This document shows positions 4,898-10,253 of a DNA stretch of 64,000 nucleotides, one piece after another. The DNA is from Escherichia coli. Lineage in GTDB: Bacteria > Pseudomonadota > Gammaproteobacteria > Enterobacterales > Enterobacteriaceae. The stretch lies in NCBI RefSeq assembly GCF_965641715.1, contig NZ_OZ282453.1. The stretch is one strand, 5' to 3'. Positions within the stretch are counted from its first letter, which is position 1, and the number at the start of each line of letters is the position of its first letter. The notes under the pieces were generated by a model. It worked only from the letters and a program-made list of their open reading frames with translations, made no database searches and was not told where the DNA came from. Position numbers and translations under genes: made by a program.

Positions 4898-5560
4898 TTA
4901 ATTGCCAGCCATCGCCTGCTGGATAATGGGAATTGGCGTCAGTAAATGCTGGCGCATTAACTCACTGGCGCGCGCGGTATCTCGCGCCAGTACCGCCGCA
5001 GTCAGGGTCTGGTGCTGATCGTGTTTATCCTCCAGCATTTCCACCGAAAGCACCGTTCGCCGCAGCCAGATAAATCGATAACGCGCCGCCAGATCAAACA
5101 ACCGTTCACGCATTTGCAGCAAATAGTGAGAACCACAGCCCGCCACAATTGCAGTATGAAACGCCTGATGACGCAGATCCCACTCATCAAGCATTTTCTC
5201 GCTAGCGTCACAGGCCTCAAGCTTACTCAGCAGATGCGCTTTTGCGAGAACGTCTGCCTCCCACTCATCGTCACCGCGGGCAATCGCCAGACTCACTAAC
5301 ATCGCTTCCATATTGGCGCGGGCGTCGAAAATATCGAGCAGCTCCTGCTCTGACATAGACGCCACCCGATACCCTTTTTGATTCACCACCGTGACCAGCC
5401 GTTCCGCCACCAGTTGCGAAAGAGCTTCCCGTAACGGCCCAACGCCAAGTGCATAACGCGATGTCAGCAAATTCATTCGTAATTTTTCATCCGGTTGAAA
5501 ATTACCGCGAATAATATCGTTCTTCAGCCAGCGATAGCCATCCAGAGACGTAATGGTCAT
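4898..5560 (-). CDS. csiR: CsiR GntR-family repressor of the csiD-lhgO-gabDTP operon
   Basis: ORF 4898-5578; likely start MTITSLDGYRWLKNDIIRGNF...; GntR/FadR-type architecture; directly downstream of gabP. Confidence 0.9.
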   Translation of the reverse strand: MTITSLDGYRWLKNDIIRGNFQPDEKLRMNLLTSRYALGVGPLREALSQLVAERLVTVVNQKGYRVASMSEQELLDIFDARANMEAMLVSLAIARGDDEWEADVLAKAHLLSKLEACDASEKMLDEWDLRHQAFHTAIVAGCGSHYLLQMRERLFDLAARYRFIWLRRTVLSVEMLEDKHDQHQTLTAAVLARDTARASELMRQHLLTPIPIIQQAMAGN

Positions 5561-5580
5561 GGTGTGACTCCTGATCATTA

Positions 5581-6981
5581 TCAGCGCGTATTATGAACGG
5601 GTGTTTTTTGCCACAATACCAGCTTTTTCCAGCGAGCCATAATTGGCACGGTACAGATAATCCCTATCGCTAATAAGCCAGTGGAGATCACTTCTAACTG
5701 TTGCGCCGGGCGGAATAGCATCACCACCAACACAAAGGTAATAAAGCCTATTACCAGCCAGGTGAGCCACGGGTAAAGCCACATGCGCAAGCGAATTTCG
5801 CTTCCTTCTGCTCGCAGAATTTTACGCATCCGCAACTGTGAAACGGCGATGACTAAATAAACCAGCAGGGCGATAGCACCGGAGCTGTCTATCAGGAATT
5901 TAAACACTTTCGCAGGTGCGTAATAGTTCACCACCACCGTTAAAAATGCCGCTCCGGTGGAGAGTAACACCGCCACATACGGGGTTTTACTGCGGTTGAT
6001 TTTGCCCATTACCGCGGGCGCATCACCGCGACGGCTTAAGGAGTAGAGCATCCTTGACGCGGTATACAGCGCCGAGTTCAGACAGCTGGTTACGGAAAGT
6101 AATATCACGCAGTCCATGATTAATTTCGCATGGGGAATATTGAGCAATTCCAGAACCGAGCGATAAGAACCAACGGCTTTCAGCCCCGGCATATTCCACG
6201 GTATTAACGCCACTACGACAAAAATAGAGCACAAATAGAAGATAGAAATACGCCAGATAACCGAGTTGGTAGCGCGGACAATATGTTTTTCCGGCGTGTC
6301 GGATTCCGCGGCGGCAATGGTGACAATTTCTGCGCCCATAAACGAGAACATGGTGATCAACATCGCGCTTAATACCGCGCCGAAGCCGTTGGGCATAAAA
6401 CCGCCGCTATCCCATAATCTTGAGATCCCGCTCACGTCGGCATACGGGTAAAAACCGCTAATTGCCACTGCACCGAGGAAAATAAACGCCAGGATGGCAA
6501 TCACTTTGCATAGCGCCAGCCAGAACTCAAATTCGCCGTAGTTTTTAACGCTTAATAAATTACTGCCGGTTAAAGCGAGAGTAATGACGAGGGAAAATAA
6601 CCAGATGGGAATACCGGGAACCCACGAGTGCAGGATCATGGCGGCGATGTTGGCTTCCAGCGGGATAACCAGTACCCAAAACCACCAGTACAACCAGCCG
6701 ATGGTATAACCCGCCCAGCGACCAATGGCTTTATCGGCATAGGTGGAAAACGAACCGGTATCGGGCGTGGCAACCGCCATTTCCGCCAACATCCGCATAA
6801 TCATAACCACCAGTAATCCGGCGAACAGATAGGCCAGTAATACCGCCGGGCCCGCTTCGGCGATGGCGACGCTGGAACCGACAAACAGACTTGCGCCGAT
6901 AACACCGGCAATAGACAACATGGTGACGTGGCGTGACTTCAGCCCGCCGCCTAACTCATGTGGTTGCGATGATTGCCCCAT
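5581..6981 (-). CDS. gabP: GabP gamma-aminobutyrate permease (APC family)
   Basis: ORF 5581-7044; likely start MGQSSQPHELGGGLKSRHVTMLSIAGVIGASLFVGSS..., 12-TM amino-acid permease. Confidence 0.93.
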   Translation of the reverse strand: MGQSSQPHELGGGLKSRHVTMLSIAGVIGASLFVGSSVAIAEAGPAVLLAYLFAGLLVVMIMRMLAEMAVATPDTGSFSTYADKAIGRWAGYTIGWLYWWFWVLVIPLEANIAAMILHSWVPGIPIWLFSLVITLALTGSNLLSVKNYGEFEFWLALCKVIAILAFIFLGAVAISGFYPYADVSGISRLWDSGGFMPNGFGAVLSAMLITMFSFMGAEIVTIAAAESDTPEKHIVRATNSVIWRISIFYLCSIFVVVALIPWNMPGLKAVGSYRSVLELLNIPHAKLIMDCVILLSVTSCLNSALYTASRMLYSLSRRGDAPAVMGKINRSKTPYVAVLLSTGAAFLTVVVNYYAPAKVFKFLIDSSGAIALLVYLVIAVSQLRMRKILRAEGSEIRLRMWLYPWLTWLVIGFITFVLVVMLFRPAQQLEVISTGLLAIGIICTVPIMARWKKLVLWQKTPVHNTR

Positions 6982-7130
6982 CCTGAATCCTCTCGAAAGT
7001 GTGTCACTTGGGAGAGCGCCCCGACATTTCCCGCGTCGGGTCACGCGTTTAATTGTTATTGATTCTTTTTGCCGGAGAGCGGCTCCGCCTTACCCGGCCA
7101 ACATAGATTTATTCCTGTTCACGTACAGAT

Positions 7131-7480
7131 TGTCGGATGCGGCGTAAACGCCTTATCCGACCTGGATCCCCGTAGGCCGGACAAGACGCAAAGCGTCGCC
7201 TCCGGCATGGATGCGCCGAATGTCGGATGCGGCGTAAACGCCTTATCCGATCTACATTTCCGTAGGCCGGACAAGACGCGTAAGCGTCGCCTCCGGCATG
7301 GTGCGCCGAATGTCGGATGCGGCGTAAACGCCTTATCCGACCTGAATCCCCGTAGGCCGGACAAGACGCGTAAGCGTCGCCTCCGGCATGGTGCGCCGAT
7401 TGTCGGATGCGGCGTTAACGCCTTATCCGACCTACACTCTCGTAGGCCGGACAAGACGCGCAGCGTCGCCTCCGGCATGG
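7131..7480. repeat. REP/BIME array: four tandem pairs of repetitive extragenic palindromes in alternating orientation
   Basis: Units TGTCGGATGCGGCGTAAACGCCTTATCCGACC and CGTAGGCCGGACAAGACGC...AGCGTCGCCTCCGGCATGG each recur four times with about 95-nt periodicity between gabP and gabT. Confidence 0.9.
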
Positions 7481-7488
7481 GGGCGGTG

Positions 7489-8769
7489 CTACTGCTTCGC
7501 CTCAGCAAAACACTGGCCGATGATCTCCAGACCCTGACGAATCTGAGCATCTTCAATTGTGAGCGGTACAAGGATGCGCAGCACGTTGTAATACGGGCCG
7601 CAGGAGAGAAGAATCAGGCCCTTATCGCGGGCGCGCGCCACGATCTCGGCGGTGAGTTTGGCGTTCGGTTTACTGTGATCGCCGTCTTCAAACAGCTCGA
7701 TGGCGATCATCGCCCCCAGCCCGCGTACGTCGCCGATCTCGGTGTGTTTTTCGGCGATCGCCAGCAATCCGTCTTTCAACTTCTGCCCCAGATCGTTGGC
7801 TTTTTGCAGCAGATTTTCCTGCTCAAACACCTTCAACACTTCCAGCGCAGCCACGCAGGCAATCGGGTTACCCGCATAGGTGCCGCCCAGCCCGCCTGGA
7901 GCGACGGCATCCATCACTTCGGCGCGCCCGGTGACGCCCGCCAGCGGGAAACCGCCTGCGATCGATTTCGCAAAGGTGGTGAGATCCGGTGCCACGCCCA
8001 TTTGCTCCATCGCAAACAGCGTGCCGGTACGCCCCGCGCCGCTCTGCACTTCATCGGCAATCAGCATGATCCCGTGCTCGTCACACAGCGCGCGTAAACG
8101 CTGCATAAACGCAGGCGTCGCGGCGTAGAAACCGCCTTCGCCCTGAACCGGCTCAATCACGATGGCGGCGATATCTTCCGGCGCGGCGTCATTTTTGAAG
8201 ATCCGGTGGATGCTGGCGATAGCGTCATCTTCACTGATGCCGTGCAGCGGGCAAGGATAAAGCGCGCGATAAACGTGCCCTGGCATCAGGCCCATGCCCG
8301 CAGAGTACGGATTCACCTTGCCGGTCAGCGCCAGCGTGTAGTGCGTGCGCCCGTGATACGCGCCGCTAAAAGCGATGGTGCCGCTACGTTTGGTGGCAGC
8401 GCGGGCGATTTTCACCGCGTTTTCCACCGCTTCGGAACCCGTGGTGACCAGCAGCGTTTTCTTGGCAAAATCGCCCGGCACCTTCTGATTCATAATCTCG
8501 CACAGCTCCAGATACGGCTCGTAAGCCAGCACTTGGAAGCAGGTGTGCGACAATTTTTTCAACTGCGCTTCCACCGCCGCAACCACTTTCGGATGCAGGT
8601 GCCCGGTATTGAGCACCGCAATGCCGCCCGCGAAATCAAGATACTCACGGCCTTCAACGTCCCACACCCGGCAGTTTTCCGCGCGATCAGCGAAAATGGG
8701 GTGAATTTGCCCAACGCCACGAGGAACTGCCTGACTGCGGCGCTGCATTAACTCTTTATTGCTGCTCAT
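7489..8769 (-). CDS. gabT: GabT 4-aminobutyrate aminotransferase (PLP-dependent)
   Basis: 426 aa ORF MSSNKELMQRRSQAVPRGVGQIHPIFADRAENCRVWDVEGREYLDFAGGIAVLNTGHLHPKVVAAVEAQL... Confidence 0.97.
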   Translation of the reverse strand: MSSNKELMQRRSQAVPRGVGQIHPIFADRAENCRVWDVEGREYLDFAGGIAVLNTGHLHPKVVAAVEAQLKKLSHTCFQVLAYEPYLELCEIMNQKVPGDFAKKTLLVTTGSEAVENAVKIARAATKRSGTIAFSGAYHGRTHYTLALTGKVNPYSAGMGLMPGHVYRALYPCPLHGISEDDAIASIHRIFKNDAAPEDIAAIVIEPVQGEGGFYAATPAFMQRLRALCDEHGIMLIADEVQSGAGRTGTLFAMEQMGVAPDLTTFAKSIAGGFPLAGVTGRAEVMDAVAPGGLGGTYAGNPIACVAALEVLKVFEQENLLQKANDLGQKLKDGLLAIAEKHTEIGDVRGLGAMIAIELFEDGDHSKPNAKLTAEIVARARDKGLILLSCGPYYNVLRILVPLTIEDAQIRQGLEIIGQCFAEAKQ

Positions 8770-8782
8770 TCGCGTTCTCCAG

Positions 8783-10231
8783 TTAAAGACCGATGCACAT
8801 ATATTTGATTTCTAAGTAATCTTCGATGCCATACTTCGAACCTTCACGACCCAGACCCGAGGCTTTAATGCCGCCGAACGGGGCCACTTCATTGGAAATA
8901 ATCCCGGTATTGATGCCGACGATGCCGTACTCCAGCGCCTCGCCCACGCGGAAGACGCGACTTAAATCACGGGCGTAGAAATAGGCGGCAAGGCCAAACT
9001 CGGTGTCATTGGCCTGCGCGATCACATCGGCTTCATCTTTAAAACGGAACAGCGGGGCGAGGGGGCCGAACGTCTCTTCTTTCGACACTTTGGCGTTGGC
9101 TGGAACGTCCACCAGAATGGTCGGCTGGAAGAAGTTACCGCCGCGTTCGTGTGCTTTACCACCGCAAACTACGCGCGCGCCTTTTTCCAGCGCATCGGCA
9201 ATATGCTCTTCCACTTTTGCTACCGCTTTTTCATCGATCAGCGGCCCGATGGTGACGCCTTTATCCAGCCCGTCGCCGATATGCAGTTTGCTCACCGCCT
9301 GCTGCAATTTTTCGGCAAAGCGGTCATACACGCCGTCCTGCACGTATAAACGGTTGGCGCAGACGCAGGTTTGCCCGGCGTTGCGGAATTTCGAGGCCAG
9401 TGCGCCTTCCACGGCTTTATCGAGATCGGCATCGTCAAAGACGATAAACGGCGCGTTGCCGCCCAGCTCCAGCGACACTTTTTTGATGTCTTTCGCGCAC
9501 TGTTCCATTAACTGGCGGCCAATTTCGGTCGAACCGGTAAACGACAGTTTGCGTACCAGCGGGTTGCTGGTCAGTTCGTCACCCACCGCGCCCGCCGAAC
9601 CGGTGACCACGTTAAACACGCCAGCCGGAATGCCCGCGCGGATCGCCAGCTCCGCCAGCGCCAGCGCAGAGAACGGCGTCTGACTGGCGGGCTTCAGTAC
9701 CATGGTGCAGCCTGCCGCCAGCGCCGGGCCGGCTTTACGGGTAATCATCGCCGCCGGGAAGTTCCACGGCGTGATAGCCGCGGTAACGCCAATCGGCTGC
9801 TTGATCACAATCAGGCGCTTATCGGCCTGATGACCGGGAATGGTGTCGCCATAAATGCGTTTGCCTTCTTCGGCAAACCACTCAATAAAAGAGGCGGCGT
9901 AGCTGATTTCGCCTTTGGCTTCAGCCAGCGGTTTACCCTGTTCGAGGGTCATCAGGCGCGCTAAATCGTCCTGATGCTCCATCATCAAATTGAACCAGTT
10001 GCGCAGAATGTTGGCGCGTTCTTTGGCGGTGAGCGCGCGCCATGCGGGCAGGGCGCGGTTGGCGGCGTCGATAGCGGCGCGGGTTTCATCTGCGCCCATT
10101 TTCGGCACGCTACCCAGCTTGTCGCCGTTCGCCGGATTGGTGACGTCGATGACTTCACCATTGTTGGCGTCCAGCCATTCCCCGTTAATCAACGCCTGTT
10201 GGCGGAATAAGTTGCTGTCGTTCAGTTTCAT
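8783..10231 (-). CDS. gabD: GabD NADP-dependent succinate-semialdehyde dehydrogenase
   Basis: 482 aa ORF MKLNDSNLFRQQALINGEWLDANNGEVIDVTNPANGDKLG... with aldehyde-dehydrogenase catalytic region. Confidence 0.97.
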   Translation of the reverse strand: MKLNDSNLFRQQALINGEWLDANNGEVIDVTNPANGDKLGSVPKMGADETRAAIDAANRALPAWRALTAKERANILRNWFNLMMEHQDDLARLMTLEQGKPLAEAKGEISYAASFIEWFAEEGKRIYGDTIPGHQADKRLIVIKQPIGVTAAITPWNFPAAMITRKAGPALAAGCTMVLKPASQTPFSALALAELAIRAGIPAGVFNVVTGSAGAVGDELTSNPLVRKLSFTGSTEIGRQLMEQCAKDIKKVSLELGGNAPFIVFDDADLDKAVEGALASKFRNAGQTCVCANRLYVQDGVYDRFAEKLQQAVSKLHIGDGLDKGVTIGPLIDEKAVAKVEEHIADALEKGARVVCGGKAHERGGNFFQPTILVDVPANAKVSKEETFGPLAPLFRFKDEADVIAQANDTEFGLAAYFYARDLSRVFRVGEALEYGIVGINTGIISNEVAPFGGIKASGLGREGSKYGIEDYLEIKYMCIGL

Positions 10232-10253
10232 CGCTACATCCTGTTTTCAAAGG

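Follow-up and report, generated by a model that had tools for sequence, protein, structure and literature searches.

The repeat in the gabT-gabP spacer of the window (the whole 64-kb stretch of Escherichia coli DNA that was analysed) is a BIME-2 array of four 90-bp units, at a locus that is polymorphic in copy number; its identity as BIME-2 and the polymorphism of the locus are both practically certain. BIMEs have long been present at this locus in Escherichia, with a copy number that apparently shifts by recombination between units, and the array represents one of its rare expanded alleles. Taken as a whole, a BIME-2 present as a rare expanded allele and serving as a polarity element in the gab mRNA is held to be the best explanation, and a probable one. 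The finding is correct and ordinary, since it concerns a known class of repeat, in a rarely seen expansion, at a site that also holds a BIME in K-12. The literature on REPs and BIMEs goes back 40 years, and it includes reports that the copy number of BIMEs differs from strain to strain.

Structure of the array and its assignment to BIME-2

Tandem Repeats Finder detected a single tandem array at exactly 7131-7480 (period 90, 3.9 copies, 91% matches, score 579), and a repeat search of the window placed four 90-nt copies in register at 7122-7481. Each 90-bp unit carries two imperfect palindromes of opposite orientation, so that eight REP palindromes, four Y-type and four Z2-type, alternate in orientation through 7131-7480. 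A motif search of the 64-kb window returned the 26-nt Y-type core CGGATGCGGCGTNAACGCCTTATCCG four times, at 7134, 7224, 7314 and 7404, all within the array, against a chance expectation of 0.00 matches in 100 shuffles. The Z2-type palindrome GTAGGCCGGACAAGACGC...GCGTCGCCTCCGGCA begins at 7172, 7262, 7352 and 7442, as evident from the motif search and blastn-short. No further canonical REP was found elsewhere in the 64-kb window by blastn-short with REP consensus sequences, in part derived from the window. These searches, together with the Rfam scan described below, bear out the first-pass annotation, which had read the gabP-gabT spacer as a four-unit REP/BIME array of alternating orientation over about 350 bp. 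In the mRNA sense (- strand) the array reads as Z2, an S linker of 6 nt, Y and an l linker of 12-13 nt, four times over, and its elements are as follows.

7131..7480, - strand: BIME-2 array of four 90-bp units (Tandem Repeats Finder, repeat search, motif searches, direct reading)
7442..7478, + strand: Z2-type REP a, with the GTAG tag on the + strand; first hairpin past gabT, -20.3 kcal/mol
7401..7436, - strand: Y-type REP a, GTAGGTCGGATAAGGCG...CCGACA on the - strand; -18.8 kcal/mol
7352..7388, + strand: Z2-type REP b; -21.5 kcal/mol
7311..7346, - strand: Y-type REP b, with TCAG replacing the GTAG tag (motif search and blastn-short)
7262..7298, + strand: Z2-type REP c (motif search and blastn-short)
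7221..7256, - strand: Y-type REP c, GTAGATCGG variant; -15.3 kcal/mol
7172..7207, + strand: Z2-type REP d, with a loop 1 nt shorter (blastn-short)
7131..7166, - strand: Y-type REP d, with CCAG replacing the GTAG tag; final hairpin of the array before gabP (motif search and blastn-short)
7073..7101, - strand: ninth, degenerate Y-like REP GTTGGCCGGGTAAGGCGGAGCCGCTCTCCGGCA (sequence reading); hairpin of -15.4 kcal/mol

The Y units have the form GTAGGTCGGATAAGGCGTTTACGCCGCATCCGACA and the Z2 units GTAGGCCGGACAAGACGCGTAAGCGTCGCCTCCGGCA. The GTAG tag is kept by all four Z2 units and by two of the four Y units, the other two having TCAG or CCAG in its place. Read in the mRNA sense, the spacer runs from the gabT TAG through 12 nt, the array, 28 nt, the ninth Y-like REP and an 85-nt leader to the gabP ATG; the 12 nt are those between the gabT stop codon (7489-7491) and the first paired base (7476). 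Folding of the (-) strand, as transcribed, gave -201 kcal/mol over 401 nt (z = -7.4 vs shuffles), and the eight hairpins taken singly gave about -15 to -21.5 kcal/mol. The ninth Y-like REP, 28 nt past the array, was found in every BIME-bearing allele.

BIME-2 elements combine z2 and y REPs through a short S linker, have s, l or r flanks, and are repeated in tandem to an extent that differs between strains, while BIME-1 elements are single copies of z1 and y with a long L linker between them, often with an IHF site (PMC3333891). The two K-12 REP consensus sequences correspond to the Y and Z2 palindromic units of BIME-2 (PMC2817692 Table 1), and the Y and Z2 units of the array match them. REP and inverted REP alternate in the array with a tail-to-tail S linker of 6 nt and a head-to-head linker of 12-13 nt, and the latter aligns with the l region of naRNA4 in the Rfam alignment. 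Its units share a mean column identity of 92% with those of the REP325 array. The 3.9 copies reported by Tandem Repeats Finder, the existence of alleles with 1, about 1.5, 2, 3 and 4 units, and the extragenic position inside the csiD-lhgO-gabDTP transcription unit are likewise those of BIME-2. Judged at the level of sequence, the array is a BIME-2, agreeing with that class in every defining feature and with BIME-1 in none.

The one argument for reading the array as an IHF-binding BIME-1 (RIB/RIP) element is that IHF is known, in general, to be bound by certain BIMEs. Both kinds of element consist of inverted REP pairs in extragenic transcribed DNA. However, the BIME-1 or RIB/RIP element is a single Y-L-Z1 with the IHF site in L, whereas the gab array is tandem, with four copies of its unit; no Z1 unit was found in it by blastn-short, its linkers are short (6 and 12-13 nt) without an L motif, and the motif search found the IHF consensus WATCAANNNNTTR absent from 7000-7500, with four matches elsewhere in the window. 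BIME-1 elements, moreover, occur as single copies (PMC3333891). The BIME-1 identity is thus refuted at the sequence level and is regarded as extremely improbable. The statement of the first-pass annotation that BIMEs can bind IHF or gyrase accordingly stands for gyrase, which applies to BIME-2, and falls for IHF; because the array is a BIME-2, the effects that are relevant to it are those of gyrase, Rho and exonucleases.

Allelic variation of the locus and the reading frames across it

The comparison of copy number between strains, which the first-pass annotation had proposed as a check, was run on 5,426 complete E. coli genomes, and it revealed a polymorphic locus with a rare four-unit allele. 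A BIME-type gabT-gabP spacer is present in 4,058 of the 5,426 genomes (75%), nearly all with one unit, and a BL21-type BIME-less spacer in 1,304 (24%). More than one unit, as evident from a gab-type Y-l-Z2 junction at ≥95% identity, occurs in 79 genomes (1.5%); this count is restricted to the ≥95% class, as the class at ~90% represents a similar BIME-2 at yohD-yohF. Two matches of the ≥95% class were located, and both lie at gab. At the top of the match ranking over the 5,426 genomes, three units are seen in at least 23 genomes and four units in at least 7. The representative alleles are given below.

K-12: 1 unit; spacer of 237 nt
CB6837: about 1.5 units, the last Y fused to the degenerate REP; spacer of 263 nt
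OZ197100: 2 units; spacer of 331 nt
TB06051: 3 units; spacer of 417 nt
Window, GDSC2227PM and XJ34: 4 units; spacer of 507-509 nt
BL21: no BIME, unrelated spacer of 310 nt

The single-unit BIME of K-12 MG1655 resembles that of the window in its locus, its REP variants, the 12-nt distance from the gabT stop, the degenerate ninth REP and the gabP leader. It differs in having one Z2-S-Y unit, with no Y-l-Z2 junction and no naRNA4 match, the window having three units (270 bp) more. The nearest complete genome is TB06051, an isolate from fresh water in the Galapagos, which is 99.8% identical to the window over gabT-lhgO and yet carries three units. Since TB06051 is the only one among the 5,426 genomes to reach ≥99% identity over gabT-lhgO (7489-11522), most falling at 95-98%, the window would represent either a sparsely sampled E. 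coli lineage or a divergent gab haplotype.

The four-unit alleles share the same linker variants in differing order, and this shuffling indicates recombination between units. In E. coli CB6837, where the fusion of the last Y to the degenerate ninth REP leaves a spacer of 263 nt, the arrangement points to a recombination between these two elements. Among relatives of E. coli, the same REP variants occupy the same site in E. albertii (2 units), E. whittamii (1 unit) and Escherichia sp. E1V33 (3 units); as these species carry the BIME at the same site, its insertion is old and its copy number has changed repeatedly. The junction of the yohD-yohF BIME-2 (E. coli N73) is ~90% identical to that of gab and is found in ~3,300 genomes, so REP variants of the gab type occur at more than one locus.

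The BIME-less haplotype, which is a deep one and is seen in BL21, E. coli E69 and Pseudocitrobacter faecalis, has in place of the array ~235 nt of unrelated sequence with GCCCCTCTGGGGAGAGGGTTAGGGTGAGGGG. A core of ~70 nt in this spacer is multicopy, at a median of 3 places per genome, and is possibly the E. coli 'Box C' repeat. Over 4.5 kb, the gabT-gabD-lhgO segment of P. faecalis DSM 27453 shares 94.1% identity with the window, the corresponding value for E. albertii being 94.9%, and in the comparison with window positions 4900-12000 its gabP and csiR are less alike (85-88%). In P. vendiensis, the gabT-gabP spacer apparently contains a single BIME unit of the E. coli type. The identity of the P. 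faecalis segment and the presence of this unit in P. vendiensis together suggest that the gab cluster has moved horizontally between Escherichia and Pseudocitrobacter.

Two long open reading frames run across the array in the window.

7069..8097, + strand: ORF of 342 aa, passing through the array and then antisense through gabT (ORF list)
7119..7571, - strand: ORF of 150 aa, starting out of frame (+1) in the 3' end of gabT and passing through the array (ORF list)

Both were present as the first-pass annotation had listed them, each with reiterated peptides of 30 aa, and its view that they are artefacts is upheld. Their openness follows from the period of 90 nt, which is exactly 30 codons and leaves two of the six frames of the unit free of stops. 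Each unit adds 30 aa to the stop-free length, which is 164 aa for four units and 134 aa for three. Indels of 1 nt interrupt the frame in XJ34 and the two-unit allele, and BL21, having no array, has nothing that corresponds to the ORFs running through it. In the four-unit genomes the PGAP annotation has gabP and gabT only, with no CDS across the array. A real repeat-containing protein gene on either strand would accord with the length of the stop-free frames and with the approach of the 150-aa ORF to the threshold of Pfam 2_5_RNA_ligase2 (25.9 bits against a cut-off of 27). However, no NCBIfam family matched either ORF, the Pfam matches were sub-threshold only (DUF3220, at 15.5 bits, was the other), and the + strand frame is mostly antisense to gabT while that of the - strand starts out of frame inside it; along with the features above, this leaves the probability of such a gene negligible. 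Both Pfam matches lie below cut-off and were dismissed as chance, the 2_5_RNA_ligase2 near-match probably arising because the reiterated PHPTFG mimics the HxT motif of that family. This case illustrates that translations of REPs can almost reach family thresholds. Such arrays should be masked by gene callers and in ORF tracks, as a 90-bp period produces long repeat-peptide ORFs on both strands.

Operon context and comparison with REP325

The genes around the array were identified by NCBIfam equivalog matches, and all lie on the same strand.

4898-5578, - strand: CsiR (NCBIfam equivalog)
5581..6981, - strand: gabP, GABA permease, the downstream gene (NCBIfam NF007566, aligned from residue 22; RefSeq starts)
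7489..8769, - strand: gabT, GABA transaminase, the upstream gene (NCBIfam NF005985, 911.7 bits, full length; RefSeq of homologous loci)
8783-10231, - strand: GabD (NCBIfam equivalog)
10254-11522, - strand: LhgO (NCBIfam equivalog)

The flanking genes are thus gabP and gabT, as first named, with full-length equivalog matches. The ORF list places the gabP start at GTG 7044, 21 codons early; the NCBIfam model and RefSeq put it at the ATG at 6981. A five-gene operon csiD-lhgO-gabDTP has been described (PMC6265302), and in the window it lies on the - strand and is followed by csiR. As the array is situated between gabT and gabP of this operon, in an untranslated spacer of 507 nt, it would be transcribed within the operon mRNA. 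No sigma-70-like promoter was detected in the array by the promoter search, and no intrinsic terminator was found in it on either strand, no hairpin being followed by a T run; a gabP promoter or an intrinsic terminator within the array was hence rejected. The sole terminator-like site, 7032-7047(+), is in the gabP leader and on the non-transcribed strand.

The Rfam scan of the - strand revealed three Y-l-Z2 modules that match naRNA4 (RF02564) above its gathering score of 59.5 bits, with the covariance-model alignment covering the full length of the model (1-77).

7355..7432, - strand: Y-l-Z2 module, naRNA4 (RF02564) match of 77.1 bits
7265..7342, - strand: Y-l-Z2 module, naRNA4 (RF02564) match of 77.1 bits, the alignment showing both hairpins
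7175..7252, - strand: Y-l-Z2 module, naRNA4 (RF02564) match of 60.5 bits

Across the alleles, the number of such matches equals the number of units minus one (0 in K-12 and BL21, then 1, 2, 3 and 3). naRNA4 is one unit of REP325, a six-unit Y-l-Z2 BIME-2 between yjdM and yjdN of K-12 and the source of naRNA1-6 (PMC4550694). The gab array resembles REP325 in being a tandem of Y and Z2 REPs with an l linker, arranged as Y-l-Z2 in the mRNA sense, in lying in an untranslated spacer between two co-transcribed genes, and in the conservation of both hairpins in the three modules that pass the naRNA4 gathering score. The two arrays differ in number and length of the units (six of 100 bp in REP325, four of 90 bp at gab), in the tail-to-tail spacer, which is 17 nt (the 'U' motif) in REP325 and 6 nt at gab, and in the l linker, which is TTCGGCGCACCA in the gab array and ACGGTGCCGAC in REP325. 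The gab array also begins with Z2 and ends with Y, and REP325 the reverse. The stems differ by compensatory variants, namely GTCGGAT/ATCCGAC at gab for GCCGGAT/ATCCGGC in REP325, and GCCGGAGG/TTGTCCGGC at gab for GCCTGATG/TTATCAGGC in REP325. When 12 units from the gab loci and REP325 are aligned, 99.6% pairing is retained over both hairpins, and two base pairs show compensatory change, U-A being replaced by C-G in Y and G-C by U-A in Z2.

The presence of three modules above the naRNA4 gathering score on the transcribed strand, read with the original HU/nucleoid model (PMC4550694), would make the array a source of naRNA4-like nucleoid-associated RNAs, in which processed Y-l-Z2 RNAs bind HU and condense the chromosome. 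This model is contradicted by a 2026 preprint, which has one author in common with the original naRNA4 study: deletion or overexpression of REP325/naRNA4 left the nucleoid volume unchanged, and REP-REP contacts were undetected (bioRxiv 10.64898/2026.03.23.713779). Furthermore, the Rfam match reflects common BIME-2 sequence rather than function, and K-12 is without a Y-l-Z2 module at the gab locus. A nucleoid role for the gab array is hence very improbable and was set aside, REP325 itself having been found without effect on nucleoid compaction.

Proposed effect of the array on the gab mRNA

By analogy with REP325, the array is proposed, with moderate confidence, to be a polarity element that protects the gabD-gabT mRNA and attenuates transcription into gabP. 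The suggestion of the first-pass annotation that the array may modulate gabT versus gabP expression is thus the reading best backed by this analogy. Once transcribed in the operon mRNA, it would form eight stable hairpins, which may block 3'-to-5' exonucleolytic decay and thereby protect the upstream gabD-gabT message. The same hairpins may attenuate transcription into gabP, partly via Rho, and the net outcome would be an expression biased to gabDT over gabP. The four units, with eight hairpins against two, would probably act more strongly than the single unit of K-12, if the effect depends on dose as supposed here. REP hairpins between operon genes, with a proposed stabilisation of the upstream message and lower expression of the downstream gene, are also known from other systems: the intercistronic REP hairpins of malEFG reportedly stabilise the upstream segment, as attributed to Newbury et al. 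in 1987, and attenuating BIMEs are said to have been described by Espeli et al. in 2001. In these systems the effects were measured; for the gab array they are predicted.

The structurally closest case is REP325, which stabilises the upstream mRNA, attenuates the downstream gene 8-10-fold in a partly Rho-dependent manner, and gives rise to a ladder of RNAs that end in hairpins (bioRxiv 10.64898/2026.03.23.713779). According to the same preprint, the effects of REPs are strongly context-dependent. An additional effect on translation may be expected at the 3' end of gabT, as a REP within 15 nt of a stop codon stalls ribosomes (Liang et al. 2015, as quoted in PMC12306157); the first hairpin of the array lies 12 nt past the gabT stop, as it does in K-12, and may stall terminating ribosomes and lower the translation of GabT. 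No paper linking gabT or gabP to REPs was found in the literature search, and the supplements of the RepRanger paper hold no gab entry.

At the DNA level, the four Y units are candidate gyrase cleavage sites. Such sites are over-represented in BIME-2, mostly at y-type REPs (PMC6379681), and a main role of the array as a strong, transcription-independent site of gyrase binding and cleavage, or as a topological insulator in the gab operon, is therefore conceivable. However, gyrase cleaves BIME-2 at some loci only, and gabT and gabP are unmentioned in the portion of the Topo-seq supplements that was covered (PMC6379681). The Y units of the array are, in addition, of the GTCGGAT...ATCCGAC variant. 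A principal role of this kind is considered unlikely.

The variation of the locus has also to be weighed against the polarity element. Natural occurrence of 0 to 4 units, with ~24% of the genomes lacking a BIME, implies that any role of the array is quantitative or modulatory and dispensable. It may even be a repeat of the selfish or junk kind, close to neutral under selection and of no real consequence for gab expression, arisen by REP/BIME proliferation through RAYT/TnpA-REP activity, slippage or unequal crossing-over. The difference of one unit from the nearest relative, the shuffling of unit variants among the four-unit alleles and the ongoing recombination seen in the fusion of the last Y to the degenerate REP are all in keeping with this, as is the view that variation of BIME linkers and copy number is a sign of recombination and amplification (PMC3333891, PMC2817692). 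Terminal REPs are also without a general effect on mRNA half-life (bioRxiv 10.64898/2026.03.23.713779). However, the BIME has been kept at the exact site since before the split of E. coli and E. albertii, the pairing of the hairpins is maintained by compensatory changes, and REP325 alters the expression of its neighbours 3- to 10-fold (bioRxiv 10.64898/2026.03.23.713779). Near-neutrality is hence regarded as rather unlikely, though not as a negligible prospect.

An extension of the polarity element is that the allelic series (0, 1, about 1.5, 2, 3 and 4 units) acts as a heritable dial, turned by recombination, on the gabDT:gabP ratio, with the rare expanded alleles reflecting selection. This is doubtful; if true, each extra Z2-Y unit would bring more attenuation into gabP and more protection of the gabDT mRNA, and the expanded alleles would have been selected, for example, for a low uptake of GABA or 5-aminovalerate relative to its catabolism in particular lineages or habitats. 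The natural series of BIME-less spacers and of 1, 2, 3 and 4 units offers a test bed for the dose dependence of REP function, and the gab locus, as a well-studied stress operon, suits a test of the recent 'dual terminator-stabiliser' model of REPs.

Downstream of the array, the gabP leader (6982-7066, - strand) is nearly invariant over the ~75 nt directly 5' of the gabP ATG. This segment is identical in the window, TB06051, GDSC2227PM, XJ34, OZ197100, E. whittamii, E1V33, P. faecalis and E. coli E69, and differs by 1-2 bases in K-12 and BL21 and by 2 in E. albertii. In the predicted fold of the 85-nt leader (-25.7 kcal/mol, z = -2.7), the Shine-Dalgarno sequence GAGAGGA pairs with CUCUC, and the leader may serve to control the translation of gabP.
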